This document shows, piece by piece, positions 905 to 25,900 of a stretch of 64,000 nt of DNA. Numbering within the stretch: position 1 is the stretch's first letter; each line of letters starts with the position of its first letter. Below the pieces are notes generated by a model. The model worked only from the letters and a program-made list of their open reading frames with translations, ran no database searches and had not been told where the DNA came from. The stretch comes from Escherichia phage vB_EcoM-Ro121c4YLVW, in sequence record NC_052654.1. One strand, given 5' to 3'. The position numbers and the translations under genes were made by a program.

Positions 905-1371
905 ATTTTGCAGGATATGAACCTGTAGATCTTATTAATGGTGAGGGAGTTAGGTGCTCCCTCTGGGTTAGTGGTTGTAGCCACGGTTGTCGTGGCTGTT
1001 TTAACCAGAAAGCCTGGTCTTATTCTTATGGGAAACCGTTCACTAACGAAAATGTAGAGCAAGTTTTAAAAGATTTGTCAAGACCGTTTGTAAAAGGTTT
1101 AACAATTTTAGGAGGAGAACCATTAGATCCGCAGAATATTTACAATGTTAAAAACCTTATAGAAAAGGTTAGAGACGTTTATGGGTCAAGCAAAGATATA
1201 ATGGTGTATACAGGATATACTTTTGAGGAAGTGCCTTTGTATATTAAAAATCTTGTTGACATTATTGTAGACGGAAAGTATGAAATAAACAATCCAACCA
1301 CAAAACCTTTCAGAGGGTCAGATAATCAAAGATTATGGACCAAAACGGCGAGTGGTTGGCAATCAGATTAG
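901..1371 (+). CDS. nrdG: Anaerobic RNR activating protein (radical SAM)
   Basis: TTG start overlaps the nrdD stop. CSHGCRGCFN matches the CxxxCxxC radical-SAM cluster, and a GGEPL motif is present. Size is about 156 aa and it sits next to nrdD. Confidence 0.9.
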   Translation: MNFAGYEPVDLINGEGVRCSLWVSGCSHGCRGCFNQKAWSYSYGKPFTNENVEQVLKDLSRPFVKGLTILGGEPLDPQNIYNVKNLIEKVRDVYGSSKDIMVYTGYTFEEVPLYIKNLVDIIVDGKYEINNPTTKPFRGSDNQRLWTKTASGWQSD

Positions 1372-1384
1372 CGTAGGAGGTTTT

Positions 1385-1576
1385 ATGGTTACATATTTTG
1401 CTGTAGGAGATAGGGTAGGGACGGCAGGAGAACTTTTGAAGAACAGTGATCGGGACGTTAAGGACATTCTTGCAACCCTTGTGGATATTTTACAAAGAAA
1501 AGAGTTGCTTTCTGATCGAGATGTTGCTAAATTACTTGATATCGGAGGAGATGAACTTCAAAGACTTCCATTTTAA
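1385..1576 (+). CDS. Hypothetical small protein
   Basis: ATG at 1385 is preceded by gtaggagg, so the track start at 1352 is probably an upstream extension. No recognisable motif. Confidence 0.4.
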   Translation: MVTYFAVGDRVGTAGELLKNSDRDVKDILATLVDILQRKELLSDRDVAKLLDIGGDELQRLPF

Positions 1577-19147: not shown

Positions 19148-19942
19148 TTGAGCAAGTTGAACACACTTGATCAATATTACACTAACCCCGCTTATGCGGG
19201 GTTCTTATGTGATAAGATCAAAGAAATTTTTGGAGAGGAAGCTAACTACGTAGAACCATCTGCGGGAGAAGGAGCTTTCTCTTCTTGTTTTAAAAACATA
19301 ACTTCTTTTGATATTGACCCTAAGTTTGAAGATTGTATTGAGGCAGATTTTTTAGCTCAATCTGTTGAGTCTGTTGGTAGCGTAACTGCTTTTGTCGGTA
19401 ATCCTCCATTTGGAAAAAATGCTAGTCTTGCCATTAAATTCTTTAACCATTGTGCTGAAATGCTGGATAACGAAGGTGGTATTTGTTTTATCTTGCCTCG
19501 CACATTTCAAAAAATCTTTTTTGCACACAAACTAAATCCCCATATGCATCTTCTTTACGAAGAAGAATGTCCAAAAGGATCTTTTATTCTTCATGGAGAA
19601 CCTTGGGATGTTCCTTGTGTATTCCAGGTATGGATTAAACGCAACGAGAAGCGTTCTCCCGTTGTTTTAGGAGAGAATCGACTATTCGTATTAGGTAACA
19701 GTAAAGACTACGATATAGCTGTTAGGAGAGCGGGAGCAAGTGCAGGTAGAGTGTTATCAGAAGAAGATTCTTTATCTGAAGCATCTACCTATTTTTTAAA
19801 AGCCTTGACTTCTGATCTTAAAACGCGTATCATTGAGGCTTACCCGTTACTTAAAGCTGAAGCTAGTAAAACTGCGGGAGTAAGAAGTTTAAGTTTAAAA
19901 GAACTTCAGTGGGTTCTGGAGAACATTAGAAAGGAGGAATAG
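19148..19942 (+). CDS. DNA N6-adenine methyltransferase
   Basis: TTG start after aaggagg. Motif I VEPSAGEGAF and motif IV GNPPFGKN (NPPF). Confidence 0.8.
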   Translation: MSKLNTLDQYYTNPAYAGFLCDKIKEIFGEEANYVEPSAGEGAFSSCFKNITSFDIDPKFEDCIEADFLAQSVESVGSVTAFVGNPPFGKNASLAIKFFNHCAEMLDNEGGICFILPRTFQKIFFAHKLNPHMHLLYEEECPKGSFILHGEPWDVPCVFQVWIKRNEKRSPVVLGENRLFVLGNSKDYDIAVRRAGASAGRVLSEEDSLSEASTYFLKALTSDLKTRIIEAYPLLKAEASKTAGVRSLSLKELQWVLENIRKEE

Positions 19943-22900
19943 TGAGTAAGTTTACATGGGATATTGAAGCAAACGGATTGTTGAATAATGACACTATTGA
20001 TTATTTAGCTAGTCCTTATCGTCTCAAAGACACATTTCAAATGCACTGTATTGTCTTAGAGAACCATGAAACAGGAGAAATAGTAGCTTTCCACGATGGC
20101 CCTAAATACATCTTTGATGGGCGTCCTTATGAAGAGTCAGATGGTAAATACACATATGTTCTTAAAGAGTATGTGGCGCAAGATTACACACATTTTCAAC
20201 TAAAAGATTTCCCAGACTTTATTAATCATGAAGGTTATTTTAAAGATAAGCCTGAATATCTGGTTGAAATGGCTGTGGCTCACAACGGTATCAACTACGA
20301 CTGGTTGGCTACAAAACTGTTTTATGGATTAGATTACAGTGTTAAATATAATACGTGGGGCAAAAATAAGGTAAAACTTATTGACTCCTTGATTTTGAGT
20401 AAAGTGTTAAACCCAGATCGAAAGATTGAGGGCAAATCAGGACATAGCTTGGCAGCACTTTCTCGAAAAGCAGGTGGTGATGTAAAAATAGATTTCCGTA
20501 AAGAGATTCCAGAAGAAGATCGATTTAAGACTTTTGCTGCGGATATGCTTTATTACTGTATCTATGACAACAAAGCCAATACGAGCGTATATAATTACCT
20601 TATGGAAGAATGGGGCGATTATGATAAATGGGAAGGTCCATTTGAACTTGAACAACGTGTAGCAGACATTATTACACGCCAGGAACACCGTGGGTTTGCT
20701 TTTAACATGAAGCAAGCAGAAGAGAACCTTGCTTTTTTGGATGCAGAAATGGAGCGTCTTCGTTTACTCGTTGAGCCTATTTTGCCACCTAAACCAGCAA
20801 CAAAAGGTTATCTTAAGGCTTTTATTCCACCTAAGTTGCAAATTAAAAAGAACTTAGAGCCAACTAACCATATGATCAATTTTGCTAAGAAACATGATGG
20901 TCATTTGGAAGAGAGGGATGGCGATTGGTGGTTAGTTATGTTGGGGAAAGAGTGGAAACTGCCAGTTGCAGCAGATGAGCCTCTATGTGATCCTAACATC
21001 CCTGCAACATTGAACGATACAACCCATATTAAAAACTGGCTCGTAGGATTAGGTTGGGTACCGTCTGAATATAAAGATAAAGACTTGACGCTTAAATCTG
21101 GCACCAAAATTAAAAAGAGCGAGGAAGAACTTCAGAAAGGTATTAGAGCTTACGTTGAGCAAACTCTATCTTCTAATTTTTGTCAGGATCGTTGTGATCA
21201 TCTGGAGTGCACACCGGAAACTTTGGAAAGGAAGATTCAAGAGCGTATAGCAAAAGGTAAAGGTCGCGGTCTTAAAGTATTGACTAACCCATGTTTTACC
21301 AAAGGTCAGGAAAAAGAAATTTGTCCTAACCTGCAAGCTTTGGGTGAGAAATTTCCTTATGCTACACAGATTGTAGAATACTTAACGTATAAGCATCGTA
21401 GGAACTCTATTTTAGGTGGCGGTGCTGATTGGGAAGAAGATGAAGAAGATCAAGAATACGATAAAGGTTTCTTAGCCGCAGTAAGGGCGGATGGGCGTAT
21501 TCCTACACCAGCCGCTACATGTGATGCTGCAACCTCTCGTATGAAACATAGATCTGTAGCTAATATTCCTCGTGTCACATCTTTGTTTGGATGGGAGATG
21601 CGTAACTTGTTTGGTGTAGAAGTTCCTAAATACTTCCAGATCGGTTATGACTTCGACTCTTTGGAAGCAAAGATTGAGTCGCATTACTGTGTGCCGATGG
21701 ATGCTCAAGCTTTGACTCGTAAAGGTTGGGTAGGATATCACGACCTGAAGGAAGGGGATGAGATTTTAGGGTACAATGCTGAAACAGGTATGAAAGAATG
21801 GACTAAAGTAAAAGGTAAGGTCTTCTATAAAAATAGTAAGACGTTTGAGATTAAAGGGAAATCACACACTTACCGTGCAACAGCAGATCACCGTTGGTAT
21901 GTTAATACCCGTAGTAAAGGGAATACTTATGTGCCTAAAGTCAGAACAACTGCCGAGCTTTGCACAGGAGATAATATTATTTGTAATGCTCCATTTAACA
22001 TGGAACAAGATCAGGTAAATAGTTTAACTTCTGTTCAACAAGGTAAATGGGATGTTCCGTGGGTAGAGCGTGTAGTTAATATGTCTCATGCCGAGCGTGT
22101 AGCTTTCTTGGAAGGTTTCTTGATTGCAGATGGTTACTGGCATGAACATAAACAAAAACCTGTTTGGCGTTGGGCGCAGAACCCAGGTGAACTTTTTGAA
22201 GCAGCTTTAACTGCCTCGTACCTGGTGCATGGAGGCAATATCTCTGTAGCTTTCAATACAAAAGAGCAGAAAGTAAAAGTGGCAACATTGACTAACCGCT
22301 CTCACATTCCTGTTCAAAGTTTGACTATTGAAGAGTGGGGTGTAGAGGATGTTTGGTGTCCACAAACAGAACTTGGTACGTGGGTCATGCGTCAGAAAGA
22401 CTGCATTACCATCACAGGAAACTGTTGGCGCTACGAACCGGAGCCTCATGAATACTGTAACGCTCTCTTGTTAGAGAAGCCTAACGATGTTCATACCATG
22501 ATGGCAAAACGTATTACAGATACTATTGGGCGTAAATTTGAACGTAGTCCGGCGAAATCTGTTAAATACGGGATCACTTATGGTGCACAAGCAGACAAGG
22601 TTGCTAAAACAATTGGTAGCGATAAATACACAGGGCAACTGGTGTTCGATGCTTTCTGGGAAGCTGCATTCCCACTGGCGCGTCTTAAAGAACGTTTAAA
22701 CGATTTCTGGGTTAAGACTGGTAAACAGTATGTTTTGGGTATTGACGGTCGTAAGGTTCCTACTCGTTCTGCTCACGCGATTCTTAACTCTCTGTTCCAA
22801 AGTGGTGGGGTTATCTGTGCTAAACGTGCAATGGTTATTTATGACGACATGATCGAAGAAGAAGGGCTAAGTGTTGACTTCTTTAAAGATGACTGGAAGA

Positions 22901-23274
22901 ATAAAGACTTCGTGCAACAAATGATTGCATATCACGATGAAGCCCAGCTTGAAGTTTCTCGTAACCTTGTAGAATTTAAATGGTTTTCACCTGAATCATT
23001 AGGTTGGAAGAAAGTAGACGATCCTGAAGAACAAAAGAAAATTGATAAAGAATGCCTTGCTAAAGTTGAAGAATGGAAACATAATAAGGAAAAAGAGACA
23101 GGGCAAATTTGGGCTAACATTCATGAATCTCCCAAAGGTGGATGGTTTACAGCCTATAGTCGGGCAGGTGAACTTGCTGCTTTAGCTGTTACTAAGGCTG
23201 GAGAATTTTACAATCTTAATGTTCAGCTTACTGCCGGATATGATGTGGGTAACTCCTGGGCGTCCTGTCACTAG
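19942..23274 (+). CDS. Family A DNA polymerase with 3'-5' exonuclease domain, interrupted by an intein
   Basis: Exo I FTWDIEANGL, motif A GYDFDSLEAKIESHY, motif B RSPAKSVKYGITYGA, motif C AYHDEAQLEV. The extein junction HY|CWRYEPEPHEY is colinear with T7 DNAP LAHF-MARFDNGEY. Confidence 0.9.
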   Translation: MSKFTWDIEANGLLNNDTIDYLASPYRLKDTFQMHCIVLENHETGEIVAFHDGPKYIFDGRPYEESDGKYTYVLKEYVAQDYTHFQLKDFPDFINHEGYFKDKPEYLVEMAVAHNGINYDWLATKLFYGLDYSVKYNTWGKNKVKLIDSLILSKVLNPDRKIEGKSGHSLAALSRKAGGDVKIDFRKEIPEEDRFKTFAADMLYYCIYDNKANTSVYNYLMEEWGDYDKWEGPFELEQRVADIITRQEHRGFAFNMKQAEENLAFLDAEMERLRLLVEPILPPKPATKGYLKAFIPPKLQIKKNLEPTNHMINFAKKHDGHLEERDGDWWLVMLGKEWKLPVAADEPLCDPNIPATLNDTTHIKNWLVGLGWVPSEYKDKDLTLKSGTKIKKSEEELQKGIRAYVEQTLSSNFCQDRCDHLECTPETLERKIQERIAKGKGRGLKVLTNPCFTKGQEKEICPNLQALGEKFPYATQIVEYLTYKHRRNSILGGGADWEEDEEDQEYDKGFLAAVRADGRIPTPAATCDAATSRMKHRSVANIPRVTSLFGWEMRNLFGVEVPKYFQIGYDFDSLEAKIESHYCVPMDAQALTRKGWVGYHDLKEGDEILGYNAETGMKEWTKVKGKVFYKNSKTFEIKGKSHTYRATADHRWYVNTRSKGNTYVPKVRTTAELCTGDNIICNAPFNMEQDQVNSLTSVQQGKWDVPWVERVVNMSHAERVAFLEGFLIADGYWHEHKQKPVWRWAQNPGELFEAALTASYLVHGGNISVAFNTKEQKVKVATLTNRSHIPVQSLTIEEWGVEDVWCPQTELGTWVMRQKDCITITGNCWRYEPEPHEYCNALLLEKPNDVHTMMAKRITDTIGRKFERSPAKSVKYGITYGAQADKVAKTIGSDKYTGQLVFDAFWEAAFPLARLKERLNDFWVKTGKQYVLGIDGRKVPTRSAHAILNSLFQSGGVICAKRAMVIYDDMIEEEGLSVDFFKDDWKNKDFVQQMIAYHDEAQLEVSRNLVEFKWFSPESLGWKKVDDPEEQKKIDKECLAKVEEWKHNKEKETGQIWANIHESPKGGWFTAYSRAGELAALAVTKAGEFYNLNVQLTAGYDVGNSWASCH
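21688..22422 (+). mobile_element. Intein (245 aa) with a LAGLIDADG-type motif, inserted just after polymerase motif A
   Basis: It starts at Cys (CVPMDAQALTRKGW.., Hint block A). Block B is TADH, the endonuclease-like motif is FLEGFLIADGYW, and it ends ..DCITITGN followed by a +1 Cys. Removing it restores a contiguous motif A to motif B region. Confidence 0.85.
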
Positions 23275-23291: not shown

Positions 23292-23310
23292 AAGGGGCTT
23301 CTGCCCCTTT
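23292..23310 (+). terminator. Rho-independent terminator after the polymerase gene
   Basis: AAGGGGC-ttct-GCCCCTT followed by t. Confidence 0.65.
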
Positions 23311-23322
23311 ATAGGAGGAGAT

Positions 23323-23514
23323 ATGCATTACGATTTAGATTGTCTTGGTATGCCTTATCTACCAGATGAATTTGAAGGTGAAGAAGAACGTGAATGGGAC
23401 GATGGGGATATCCGTTGTTGGTCTTGTGGTAAAGATATGTCCTATGAACAACATATGCACAATGATGGTTTCTGCATACATTGTTATAATGAAATTGATC
23501 TGGAGGAAGATTAA
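23323..23514 (+). CDS. Small acidic zinc-ribbon protein
   Basis: RBS aggaggag. Contains CWSCG...CIHC. Confidence 0.5.
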   Translation: MHYDLDCLGMPYLPDEFEGEEEREWDDGDIRCWSCGKDMSYEQHMHNDGFCIHCYNEIDLEED

Positions 23515-23681
23515 TGGGAAATGGTATCATGATTTGCTATAAAATTGTGCGTATTGTCGGAGACGAAGTTATCACTCGGTATTTTATGATAGAGTCTCAA
23601 GCCGATGAGGTTTACAATGACTGGCTTGAAAAAGGTGGATACGATTTTGTATCTAAAGAAACTTTCCGTTTAGAAGTATAA
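23514..23681 (+). CDS. Unlisted 55-aa ORF (below the track cutoff)
   Basis: TAATG coupling to the upstream stop. Hand translation: MGNGIMICYKIVRIVGDEVITRYFMIESQADEVYNDWLEKGGYDFVSKETFRLEV. It fills the gap up to the RBS of the next gene. Confidence 0.4.
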   Translation: MGNGIMICYKIVRIVGDEVITRYFMIESQADEVYNDWLEKGGYDFVSKETFRLEV

Positions 23682-23691
23682 GGAGAAAACA

Positions 23692-23910
23692 ATGCGTAAA
23701 TTAGTGAGCTTTAATGTTTCAATTCTTGTTGATGAACAAAATGAAGATGTTATTAAAGGTCTTGCAAATAAGATTGCAGGTGGAATGACGGAAGCTGAAG
23801 TGTGGGAAGAATGTGCTCGACTTTATGAGGAAGGTGTTATTGAGGTCTTGGGGGATGAGATTAATATGGACGATGTTGTAAAAGTAACTGTGGAGCGTAT
23901 CCATGACTAA
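23692..23910 (+). CDS. Hypothetical small acidic protein
   Basis: RBS aaggagaa. 72 aa. Confidence 0.5.
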   Translation: MRKLVSFNVSILVDEQNEDVIKGLANKIAGGMTEAEVWEECARLYEEGVIEVLGDEINMDDVVKVTVERIHD

Positions 23911-24496
23911 ATCAAAACAAATCAATATTGCCAAAGAAATTCTTACCGTATTAAAGATTGCTGATCCTAATTCTGTCTTGGCTGGCGGCGCTGTTCGTGA
24001 TTGGCGTATTCTTGATATTGCTGGACGTGATCTGGATTTTTACACGTCTCTTCCTGCACATCGATCAGAAGAGCAAATACAAGAATTGATTGCATCTGCT
24101 TTGATGGGAACTAATGTTCGTAAATTAGGAAACAAAGAGGCTTCTGACAATTATGAAGGTGTTACTGGTCTTAAACACGTTTTTGAGTTTGAACGTGATG
24201 GTCAGCTTTGCAACCTTATGATTATGGAACCAAGCGTAATGACAACCTTTCTAAATGAGTTTGATCTGTCCATCTGCCAGGCTGCATTTGATGGGAAGGA
24301 TTGTTATTACTCTAAAGATTTTGAAACAACTTTGGAAACAGGGATCTGCTTCTTGCACAAAGATGTTAGAGAAGATGCCAAACACGTTATTAAAATTGCT
24401 ACACGTTTCCCATATCTTCGTTTTGTGAAAGAGGTTAAGGTTCCACGTCCACCTCAAGTAGATACCAGATTGGAAGAAGATGATATTCCTTGGTAA
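23903..24496 (+). CDS. Minimal Pol-beta-superfamily nucleotidyltransferase (CCA-adding/poly(A) polymerase head-domain type) with an SSB-like acidic tip
   Basis: LAGGAVRDWRIL...GRDLDFYT matches GGxVRD...DxD of class II CCA/PAP enzymes, and EFDLSICQAAFD resembles the RRDFTINA region. The C-terminus is RLEEDDIPW. Confidence 0.65.
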   Translation: MTKSKQINIAKEILTVLKIADPNSVLAGGAVRDWRILDIAGRDLDFYTSLPAHRSEEQIQELIASALMGTNVRKLGNKEASDNYEGVTGLKHVFEFERDGQLCNLMIMEPSVMTTFLNEFDLSICQAAFDGKDCYYSKDFETTLETGICFLHKDVREDAKHVIKIATRFPYLRFVKEVKVPRPPQVDTRLEEDDIPW

Positions 24497-24503
24497 TTAA
24501 AGC

Positions 24504-24533
24504 TTGACAATATTAAACATTTTATGATAGGAT
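24504..24533 (+). promoter_or_regulatory. Promoter-like element
   Basis: TTGACA (24504-24509), about 18 nt spacer, TAGGAT (24528-24533). The -10 assignment is uncertain and lies very close to the ATG at 24542. Confidence 0.35.
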
Positions 24534-24541
24534 AGCATTCA

Positions 24542-24934
24542 ATGACTGAACGTTCTAAGATAGCTGTTGAAACTGTTTATGGAAACTACACCAGTTTGAC
24601 ACTAGTTGAGAAAAATGTTGTAGGTCTTGACAACTCTTTTTATTTTCAAATTTTGGTTATTCAAGGTGGAAACAAGAAGCTAACTGCTCGTGTCGAAACA
24701 TCTGAAATAATTGAAACCACTGTTACAAACAAAGAATTCATTTCACTGCAAGATACAATCCGAAACGTTATAGACGAAGAAGGCAAAGCTGCCACAATTA
24801 AACTCGGAGGTTTCCCAGTGCAAATAGTTCATTTTCCTAATGGTGAAATTGGAGTTGGAATAGGTAAAGGTAAATACCTGTTAGAGCAAGATGATATGGA
24901 AAGACTCCGCTCTTTCTGTGCAAAATTAATGTAA
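24542..24934 (+). CDS. Hypothetical protein
   Basis: 130-aa ORF between the promoter-like element and the SSB gene. Confidence 0.55.
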   Translation: MTERSKIAVETVYGNYTSLTLVEKNVVGLDNSFYFQILVIQGGNKKLTARVETSEIIETTVTNKEFISLQDTIRNVIDEEGKAATIKLGGFPVQIVHFPNGEIGVGIGKGKYLLEQDDMERLRSFCAKLM

Positions 24935-24950
24935 TGTAGAGGAGATAATA

Positions 24951-25838
24951 ATGTCCGTAATTAATACTGAAACTGATCGTAAAGGCAAAACCGTAACTTA
25001 TGCAACTGGTATCGTAGACTACGTTAAACTGGATAAATTCGCTGAACCTAAAACTTTTCATTGGGAAGGAAAAACGATTGTTTCAACTCACCGAGCCTCT
25101 CTTGTTCTGAAAGAGAAAGGTGCTAAACCAGATGAGAAAGGTGTTTGGATTTCTCTTGGTGACATTGAACTGAAAGAAGGTTATGAAAACCTGCAAGTCA
25201 AAGAAGGTGATAATTGGATCACTATTGAAAAAGGTGTAGAAGTAAGTATTGATATTGATCGCGTTGATAATAAAGGCGGTAAAACTTACTACAATACTAA
25301 AAAATCTCGTATTACAGTATTGTCTACCGATGGTGTTCAGAAGTCTAACAAATCTTCTGGTAATAAAGGTTCCAACGATGCTGCTCCTAAGCAGTCCTAT
25401 AAAAAACGTGATACTGTAGGTCTGGAAACTGGTCACGCAGTAAATGGTGCACTGGAACTGATTCGTAATGGTGTTAAAGGCGATGCTTTCGATATCGCTG
25501 GGGTTGTTCAATCTGCAACTGTCACGCTGAAATCTGAAATTGCTGAATCTCGTGGCGTTGATATTAATGATTATGATCTTGGGGCATCTGTTGGTCACGC
25601 TATTCTCAATGCTTGTAAAGACCATACCATTAAGACTGTCTCTGTAGAAGATCTGATTGATTCTGCTCGTAAAGTTCTGGCTCTGTCTGATAAAGTTGCT
25701 GCTGCCATTCGTGGTTCCGCAGAACAGCCTAAGAAAGAAGAGAAGAAAGAAGTTAAGAAACCTGAACCACAACCAGAACCAACTCCAAGTAATCAAGAAG
25801 AACCTCCAATGGACTTCGACGATGATATTCCATTCTGA
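24951..25838 (+). CDS. ssb: Single-stranded DNA-binding protein
   Basis: RBS gaggag. The N-terminal part is beta-rich, followed by a Gly/Ser/Lys/Pro-rich linker. The C-terminal tip PPMDFDDDIPF is identical to the E. coli SSB tip. Confidence 0.75.
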   Translation: MSVINTETDRKGKTVTYATGIVDYVKLDKFAEPKTFHWEGKTIVSTHRASLVLKEKGAKPDEKGVWISLGDIELKEGYENLQVKEGDNWITIEKGVEVSIDIDRVDNKGGKTYYNTKKSRITVLSTDGVQKSNKSSGNKGSNDAAPKQSYKKRDTVGLETGHAVNGALELIRNGVKGDAFDIAGVVQSATVTLKSEIAESRGVDINDYDLGASVGHAILNACKDHTIKTVSVEDLIDSARKVLALSDKVAAAIRGSAEQPKKEEKKEVKKPEPQPEPTPSNQEEPPMDFDDDIPF

Positions 25839-25870
25839 TCTTATTGATTTATAAAGAGTTTTTATAAAAG

Positions 25871-25900
25871 AAAAGGGAACCTTTGCGGGTTCCCTTTTTT
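25871..25900. terminator. Bidirectional rho-independent terminator between the convergent early and late blocks
   Basis: aaaaGGGAACC-tttgcg-GGTTCCCtttttt, with an A-run on one side and a T-run on the other. Confidence 0.85.

Follow-up and report, generated by a model that had tools for sequence, protein, structure and literature searches.

SSB-type C-terminal tips on a minimal nucleotidyltransferase and an SSB-like protein in the replication operon of a phAPEC8-like phage

The C-terminal tip of SSB, the protein that binds single-stranded DNA, acts in bacterial genome maintenance as the central docking handle and is usually regarded as a property of SSB alone. Its interactome in E. coli includes ExoI, RecQ, PriA, chi, DnaG and RecO, among others. 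The locus considered here raises the question of what such a tip may do on another enzyme. The window, that is, the whole stretch of DNA that was analysed, comprises 64,000 nucleotides (nt) of Escherichia phage vB_EcoM-Ro121c4YLVW (sequence record NC_052654.1), and the coordinates below are window positions unless another locus is named. It encodes a minimal nucleotidyltransferase (NTase) and, a short distance downstream, an SSB-like protein, and both end in acidic, proline-containing and aromatic-terminated peptides. In the original prediction, made from the letters of the DNA, the two tips were proposed to plug into the same receptor pockets. Both open reading frames (ORFs) lie where that prediction had placed them; the first carries LAGGAVRDWRILDIAGRDLDFY at residues 26-47 and the C-terminus RLEEDDIPW, and the second ends in PSNQEEPPMDFDDDIPF. 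The features on which the argument depends are the following (aa, amino acids; pLDDT, predicted local distance difference test score).

23903..24496, + strand: minimal NTase, 197 aa, a stand-alone class-II (CCA-adding/poly(A)-polymerase type) head domain
23981..24043, + strand: catalytic motif A of the NTase (AGGAVRDWRILDIAGRDLDFY, residues 27-47), whose two metal-binding aspartates are D43 and D45, from family conservation and profile alignment to 6ibp
24440..24493, + strand: disordered C-terminal tail of the NTase, residues about 180-197, from pLDDT; tip conserved, linker variable
24473-24493, + strand: NTase tip EEDDIPW, residues 191-197
24951..25838, + strand: SSB-like protein, 295 aa, with an OB fold (1-125), a disordered segment (133-149), a four-helix domain (156-253), a disordered acidic linker and the tip
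25800..25835, + strand: SSB tip EPPMDFDDDIPF, equal to the last 12 residues of E. coli SSB and aligned to 1eqq and 7f2n

The NTase tail peptide (VDTRLEEDDIPW) has a mean pLDDT of 63 over residues 181-190 and of 50 over residues 191-197, and W197 is immediately followed by the stop codon. Ten homologs with 59-99% identity also close with DDIPW, except for one that has DSFPW, and the 10-15 residues before the tip vary among the same ten proteins, with insertions and deletions. A more distant relative (P0136), 38% identical to the NTase, ends …NFPDDIPW and keeps the order primase-helicase, PolA, NTase, small gene and SSB, and two distant members of the family end …SSNDIPW and …DDGIPF. Compared with the consensus of the SSB C-terminal peptide (SSB-Ct), D-D-D-[IL]-P-F, the NTase end E-E-D-D-I-P-W agrees save for the terminal W. 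The receptors of SSB-Ct, such as the pockets of ExoI and RecQ, read the terminal aromatic side chain, the alpha-carboxylate and the aspartates (PMC3159472), and the NTase tip has a terminal aromatic, a free carboxylate and aspartates, the aromatic being Trp instead of Phe. The tail is predicted to be disordered, is conserved at its free C-terminus and is syntenic with SSB, and these properties make it a candidate for a functional short linear motif of the SSB-Ct class.

Acidic IP[FW] ends are present in 4 of 150 representatives of the NTase family (clustered at 50% identity) against 6 of the 1658 remaining ORFs, 80 aa or longer, of the phage loci retrieved (Fisher p = 0.006). In the window, an acidic run followed by an [ILMV]P[FW] end is found only in the NTase and the SSB-like protein among 571 six-frame ORFs of at least 40 aa, and these two are again the only ORFs with acidic [ILMV]P[FW] ends among 2025 stop-to-stop ORFs of at least 35 aa in loci that cover the 150-kb genome of phage phAPEC8_ev052. 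The presence of the two tips is beyond chance. The notion that the NTase tip is a neutral accident of sequence devoid of function draws on the shortness of the motif and on the fact that most of the ~1000 members of the family lack it, but it is exceedingly improbable given the retention of the tip in both close and distant relatives behind a variable linker, its exclusiveness in the genome apart from SSB, and its enrichment over the background. An origin of the NTase tip as a duplicate of the 3' end of the SSB gene was also considered and set aside, the DNA shared by both being only GATGATATTCC (the DDIP codons), which is uninformative. The only other …[IL]PF end of the genome belongs to a small ORF at 1289-1576 (+ strand), which ends …DIGGDELQRLPF, is weakly acidic and probably unrelated; it corresponds to a 63-aa annotation in the reference genome, beside the activase of the anaerobic ribonucleotide reductase.

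The terminal Trp finds a context in viral metagenomes. IMG/VR was scanned for [DE]DDIPW followed by a stop codon, a pattern that viral contigs commonly contain, with at least 120 stretches; the figures given here refer to the 80 loci listed (L095-L174) and are lower bounds. In all but one of the 80 loci, the motif forms the end of an ORF of at least 67 aa, and 14 of these 79 ORFs are SSBs of the PF00436 family, with others belonging to DUF669, Enc34-type or PHROG 'SSB' families. Since [DE]DDIPW is found on canonical PF00436 SSBs, W is a natural variant of the SSB tip. The W tip is also carried by non-SSB proteins, which among the 79 ORFs include three superfamily 2 helicases (573-601 aa when complete), five DUF6511 proteins, three UPF0547 proteins and proteins of PHROG 862; a further 20 ORFs form an unannotated cluster of about 197 aa. 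Two tips within one locus were found in none of the 80 listed loci. SSB-type tips on non-SSB phage proteins may be widespread. As for the minimal NTase itself, the original prediction had regarded a tip-tagged form as undescribed, and no prior description of an SSB-Ct-consensus tip on such an enzyme was found in the literature on DDIPW, on SSB-Ct mimics and on Phapecoctavirus together with NTase.

Is the protein that presents the host-type tip itself an SSB? An 11-residue identity with the end of E. coli SSB had been noted previously, and it holds and extends to the 12 residues of the tip listed above in a phmmer search of the sequences of the Protein Data Bank (PDB), in which the tail aligns to E. 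coli SSB 1eqq (...PSNEPPMDFDDDIPF) and the upstream PSN matches as well. No match of the 295-aa protein to PF00436 was found at E up to 1, the matches in NCBIfam and the PDB are confined to the tail, and the protein belongs to PHROG 4477, to which no function is assigned, the SSB PHROGs being matched by the tail only. The AlphaFold2 model, built with 46 homologs (pLDDT 81), is beta-rich over residues 1-125, disordered over 133-149, and contains four helices at 156-253 followed by a disordered tail. An OB fold, a disordered linker and an acidic C-terminal tip follow one another in the model as they do in bacterial SSBs, and the SSB-like architecture proposed at the outset is supported on this basis. 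With respect to E. coli SSB-Ct, the phage SSB tip is identical over 12 residues, and each of the two phage tips follows an acidic linker that is disordered, forms a free C-terminus, and contains aspartates, a proline and an aromatic last residue; the phage SSB differs from the E. coli protein in not being a PF00436 member and in its extra four-helix domain, and the NTase differs in not being an SSB and in its W-ended tip without MDF.

The SSB family comprises 137 clusters at E <=0.001 and 336 phage records, extending from Phapecoctavirus to the rV5-like Vequintavirinae, and a DDIPF-type end is present in most of 120 clusters, including relatives of about 30% identity. This family-wide distribution, together with a weak DNA match to E. 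coli ssb, does not sustain the original claim that the tip was copied from the host. A recent transfer of host DNA was sought by comparing the last 102 nt of the SSB gene with 5426 E. coli genomes by blastn, and it was rejected, since only matches of 43-51 nt with 78-86% identity were obtained (E 0.02-0.9); at the DNA level, a host-copy origin is not supported. Moreover, a host-like tip on a phage SSB is a known kind of feature, published as a preprint for the family of this SSB. Bas52_0087, the trigger of the DRT10 reverse-transcriptase defence, is described there as a protein of two OB folds with a C-terminus that is disordered and an 'FDDDIPF' like the E. coli SSB C-tip, and its interplay with ExoI is discussed (bioRxiv 10.64898/2026.04.29.721553); host-like tips on such phage SSBs are therefore already on record. 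Judged from its published description, Bas52_0087 probably belongs to the same family as the window SSB, and the Bas53 homolog bas53_0086 (408 aa, ending …AFDDDIPF) matches the hidden Markov model of the SSB family at 3.6e-56. With about 410 aa and two OB folds, the rV5-type SSB is larger than the window SSB, which has 295 aa and a single OB fold.

The original prediction had also called the 197-aa protein a class-II head domain devoid of body and tail domains, and a confident structure prediction with motif A intact agrees with this call. The model, obtained from 92 relatives, has a pLDDT of 91.4 and a predicted template modelling score (pTM) of 0.85, with residues about 180-197 disordered, and among solved structures it comes nearest in fold to CCA-adding enzymes and poly(A) polymerase, to whose head and neck 146-158 of the 197 residues align. 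Motif A, AGGAVRDW...DLD, is located at residues 27-45 with its two catalytic aspartates, as in other head domains; G28, G29, W34, D43 and D45 are invariant among the 92 relatives, and A27, A30, R32, Y84 and K164 are 98% conserved. Because these core residues are invariant in the family, the NTase is likely, from its sequence, to be enzymatically active. The similarity to known profiles is faint: PF01743 scores 15.5 bits on the NTase against a gathering cut-off of 23 (E 0.023) and is found at E <=0.01 in 11 of the 92 relatives, and the family profile aligns to CCA-adding enzymes (6ibp) over motif A only (E 0.02). With the class-II nucleotidyltransferases of PF01743, the NTase shares the GGxxRD...DxD motif A and the head fold, and it is a stand-alone head like 2la3 (191 aa). 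It is unlike CCA-adding enzymes and poly(A) polymerases in its sub-threshold Pfam score, in its replication-module context and in the EDxxR nucleotide template, which is not kept in the family (the NTase has 'EDAKH' at 157-161, with H161 in 68% and K164 in 98% of members). The neck, body and tail domains that bind tRNA are likewise not found in this protein of 197 aa with a tail disordered from ~180.

The genomic context is that of a replication operon. Bases 23300-25900 matched 69 phage records, and phAPEC8_ev052 (Stephanstirmvirinae, Phapecoctavirus) is 99.4% identical; the window genome is a Phapecoctavirus (phAPEC8-like). In the phAPEC8_ev052 record, the NTase gene is labelled 'putative tRNA nucleotidyl transferase / poly(A) polymerase' and the SSB-like gene 'SSB'. 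Both genes end a rightward operon that contains a primase/helicase and a family-A DNA polymerase, which carries the label '3'-5' exonuclease' in the same record, and beyond the end of the operon there is a convergent tail-fibre gene. The remaining elements of the operon are as follows.

19942-23274, + strand: phage PolA (DNA polymerase) gene, 1110 aa
24542..24934, + strand: conserved 130-aa ORF between the NTase and SSB genes, PHROG 16560 (E 1e-76), no known function
25871..25898, no strand assigned: hairpin terminator that separates the SSB gene from the convergent gene for the tail fibre, with an 11-pair stem and then a T run

The hairpin closes the rightward replication operon. As a single 130-aa ORF lies between them, the NTase gene is the second gene upstream of SSB, and the order NTase, 130-aa ORF and SSB is also found in loci L003-L006, L008-L011, L013, L086 and L090. 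The 130-aa ORF of PHROG 16560 is always placed between NTase and SSB in the phAPEC8-like and sister clades, and its product is a possible third partner of the pair; upstream of it, at 24504-24533, there is a sigma-70-like site (TTGACA, an 18-nt spacer and TAGGAT, with TG).

The wider family has the same surroundings. An exhaustive profile search retrieved 1033 representatives (50% identity clusters) at E <=0.001, mostly of 170-240 aa, and a structure search of viral proteins recovered the NTase fold in phiKMV-like, Pectobacterium, Dickeya, Caulobacter, Vibrio and other phages. In 44 non-redundant NTase-family loci from IMG/VR, the three nearest ORFs of each were counted, and DNA_pol_A was found 10 times, DnaB_C 8 times and Toprim 5 times, with Thg1 and a tRNA synthetase once each. 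No tRNA genes were found in the window; the reference genome has ten, located ~40 kb from the NTase gene, and also encodes a tRNA methyltransferase. The polymerase, helicase and primase neighbours, together with the distance from the tRNA genes, mark the NTase as a replication-module enzyme. The annotated alternative is a tRNA nucleotidyltransferase/poly(A) polymerase whose task is to mend the 3' ends of RNAs, for instance of phage tRNAs, or to add tails to them, and whose C-terminal tail has no targeting role. It agrees with the nearest solved folds, with an annotation repeated in several records and with the presence of tRNA genes and of the methyltransferase, but it is very unlikely in view of the missing tRNA-holding domains, the sub-threshold PF01743 score, the unconserved EDxxR and the location of the gene in a replication operon, far from the tRNA cluster, in a family that neighbours replication genes. 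The GenBank name 'tRNA nucleotidyltransferase' is not supported, and the replication context favours DNA or primer ends over tRNA as the substrate of the NTase.

A relation to phage counter-defence has also to be weighed. A precomputed match to PF26128 'Gad2', and to no other Pfam family, is recorded for 55 of the 120 best members of the NTase family (P0281-P0386 range), and four tip-bearing relatives (P0009, P0136, P0238 and P0279) also carry it; where a mark is given, the match is 'weak' (P0238) or 'faint' (P0136, P0279 and the NTase of L086). The window NTase has no recorded PF26128 match, and three local Pfam scans gave no PF26128 match, although the model may be missing from that Pfam copy. 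Gad2, a phage protein of 400 aa in which an NTase domain is predicted, is needed to defeat Gabija (bioRxiv 10.1101/2023.05.01.538930), and like the present family it is a phage NTase-domain protein; it differs in its length, in its location in an anti-defence locus of SPbeta-like Bacillus phages and in that no tip has been reported for it. The family may be related to Gad2, a lead and not a membership. According to a counter-defence explanation, the NTase would be a Gad2-related enzyme whose tip is a decoy or a delivery tag directed toward host SSB-interacting nucleases or helicases, or toward defences that monitor ssDNA, SSB or DNA ends. The distribution of PF26128, the requirement of Gad2 against Gabija and the triggering of DRT10, a system controlled by the SSB partner ExoI, by an rV5-type member of the SSB family all point in this direction; nevertheless, the Gad2 matches are weak or faint where marked and were not reproduced with the local Pfam copy, and a 400-aa protein of an anti-defence locus contrasts with a family of ~200 aa in replication modules, so that this explanation is improbable.

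What, then, would the tips do? The SSB would coat single-stranded DNA (ssDNA) through its OB fold, as its predicted structure suggests, and it shows the host-type C-terminal peptide on a disordered acidic linker. Since its tip is the same as that of the host, it could engage whatever reads that peptide, either the host SSB partners or the phage replisome. The sequence and the models give the folds, the motif, its conservation and genome uniqueness, and the replication context; the binding, receptor and substrate of the NTase we infer. The enzyme has no nucleic-acid-binding body or tail domain, and EEDDIPW on its flexible tail would most likely serve as an address label that would dock into an SSB-tip-type pocket, made of hydrophobic and basic residues, on a protein acting at the fork or processing ssDNA. 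The receptor could belong to the phage replisome, following a T7-like logic, to the host SSB partners, or to both, and docking would set the NTase head beside the 3' ends of ssDNA or primers at forks or gaps, in competition with SSB tails. Docking of the NTase at SSB-tip receptors is plausible from its sequence, and the address-label mechanism as a whole, in which the NTase docks through its SSB-Ct-class tail on a tip-reading protein, is judged to have an even chance of being correct.

The tail of the T7 protein gp2.5 is acidic and ends in an aromatic residue. The acidic C-terminal tails of T7 gp4 dock on basic patches of the polymerase, and thioredoxin stimulates the binding of the polymerase to gp4 and gp2.5 (PMC12593628). 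The present locus is T7-like in that a phage SSB and a second replisome enzyme share similar acidic, aromatic-ended tails (...DFDDDIPF and ...EEDDIPW), two genes apart and the sole such ends in the genome. It is unlike T7 in that the tagged enzyme is a nucleotidyltransferase and not a helicase, and in that the tip follows, save for its terminal W, the bacterial SSB-Ct consensus and not the T7 type. In one NTase-family locus (L079; 3062-3904 and 6199-6750, both + strand), a DnaB-like helicase (…DDRVPF) is paired with a gp2.5-like SSB (…DEDVPF), a pairing of …VPF ends that parallels T7 gp4 and gp2.5.

Several observations weigh against the address-label mechanism. The NTase tip ends in W and not in F, and no MDF precedes it as in the host. 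At the position of the third catalytic carboxylate, E95, only 76% of the family members have an acidic residue. In rV5-like phages, Bas53 among them, the SSB is present, but no NTase was found between the end of the polymerase gene and a point ~3 kb beyond the SSB gene. In addition, ~17 of 120 SSB-family clusters have 14-17 extra residues past IPF, and such phages can thus do without a free SSB tip. A further objection derives from sister clades with the same synteny (L005-L013; P0363, P0374 and P0377), whose NTases are 35-40% identical and whose SSBs keep DDDIPF or DDDVPF. There, the NTase ends after a Pro-rich linker in FMDEI, WTDEI, EEFKI, DVFNF, FLDEI or WDECF, all acidic-hydrophobic and none fitting the SSB-Ct consensus. 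Because the NTase ends differ while the SSB tip stays, the NTase tail need not match the SSB tip across the wider clade and may read a phage-specific partner; the pattern agrees with a tail that follows a partner of the phage no less well than with one directed at unchanging pockets of the host, and the original proposal that both tips use the same pockets finds no support in it. It also suggests, as an observation in itself, a diversifying C-terminal docking peptide on the NTases across this large-myophage clade.

These sister-clade ends form the basis of a further explanation, in which the NTase tail does not target SSB-tip pockets but docks on a partner specific to the phage (for example the neighbouring 130-aa protein, the polymerase or the DNA-binding groove of the phage SSB itself), the likeness in the phAPEC8 clade being one of several acidic-aromatic solutions. 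The constant position of the 130-aa gene between the NTase and SSB genes is in agreement with it, and acidic SSB tails are also able to fold back onto their own OB folds. On the other hand, DDIPW fits the SSB-Ct consensus at four consecutive positions in addition to the terminal aromatic, it is kept in the ten close homologs, with DSFPW as the single departure, and in the relative of 38% identity, and canonical SSBs use the same W-ended peptide. A phage-specific partner is considered unlikely on balance, and docking on a protein that reads the SSB tip is preferred.

The extension of some SSBs, and an insertion in the DNA polymerase of the window, deserve a separate description. The 14-17 residues that follow …DDDIPF in the ~17 clusters (APIGLQYGRNFLHCF and variants) bury the tip, and in three of the four loci checked (L002, 4886-5399, Logan SRR26961125_226; L086, 4468-4896; L088, 4671-5213) an HNH endonuclease gene (PHROG 2340, E 9e-49) begins within or just after the extension. 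In the fourth (L006, 7929-7973), the extension is retained and a methylase gene is located downstream instead of HNH. In the 3' untranslated region of the window, at 25836-25860, there is a decayed version of the extension, shifted by one base. The arrangement has the look of a homing endonuclease gene whose target is the conserved DNA that codes for the tip, and which thereby buries the tip. A second docking motif had been considered for the APIGLQY… extension, but insertion of an HNH gene at the stop codon of SSB is probably the better explanation, although L006 keeps the extension with no HNH gene. The DNA polymerase of the window contains a 245-aa in-frame insertion (21688-22422, + strand), the rest being 100% identical to the 865-aa enzyme of phAPEC8_ev052. 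The insertion starts with CVPMD… and ends with …ITGN followed by Cys, and it has a LAGLIDADG-like FLEGFLIADGYW and a sub-threshold Intein_splicing match (E 0.0037); from these sequence characters, it is identified as an intein with a homing-endonuclease domain.

Should the NTase tip bind nothing, the locus contains no more than a replication module of the usual kind and a phage SSB of a type described before. Should it dock, it would offer a testable functional clue for a large phage NTase family that comprises ~1000 clusters at 50% identity, many of which are located in PolA/DnaB modules, and that may be related to Gad2. In a more far-reaching and distinctly speculative proposal, which we hold to be rather unlikely in its entirety, SSB-Ct-type tips would be a portable address label on non-SSB phage enzymes, here delivering a Gad2-related NTase to the SSB interactome or to fork hubs. 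The substrate of nucleotidylation there would be a 3' DNA end, a primer or a partner protein, and the enzyme would thereby take part in replication or blind host defences that respond to ssDNA, to DNA ends or to SSB partners (Gabija, DRT10/ExoI, retrons), while competing with host and phage SSB tails. Even short of this proposal, a docking handle of the SSB type on a phage enzyme would suggest that non-SSB phage proteins can address or jam the SSB interactome, which would be relevant to defences that sense phage SSBs or need ExoI, and, together with the W-tipped helicases and DUF6511 proteins, it would suggest that tip-tagging is more general than the single precedent of T7 gp4 and gp2.5.

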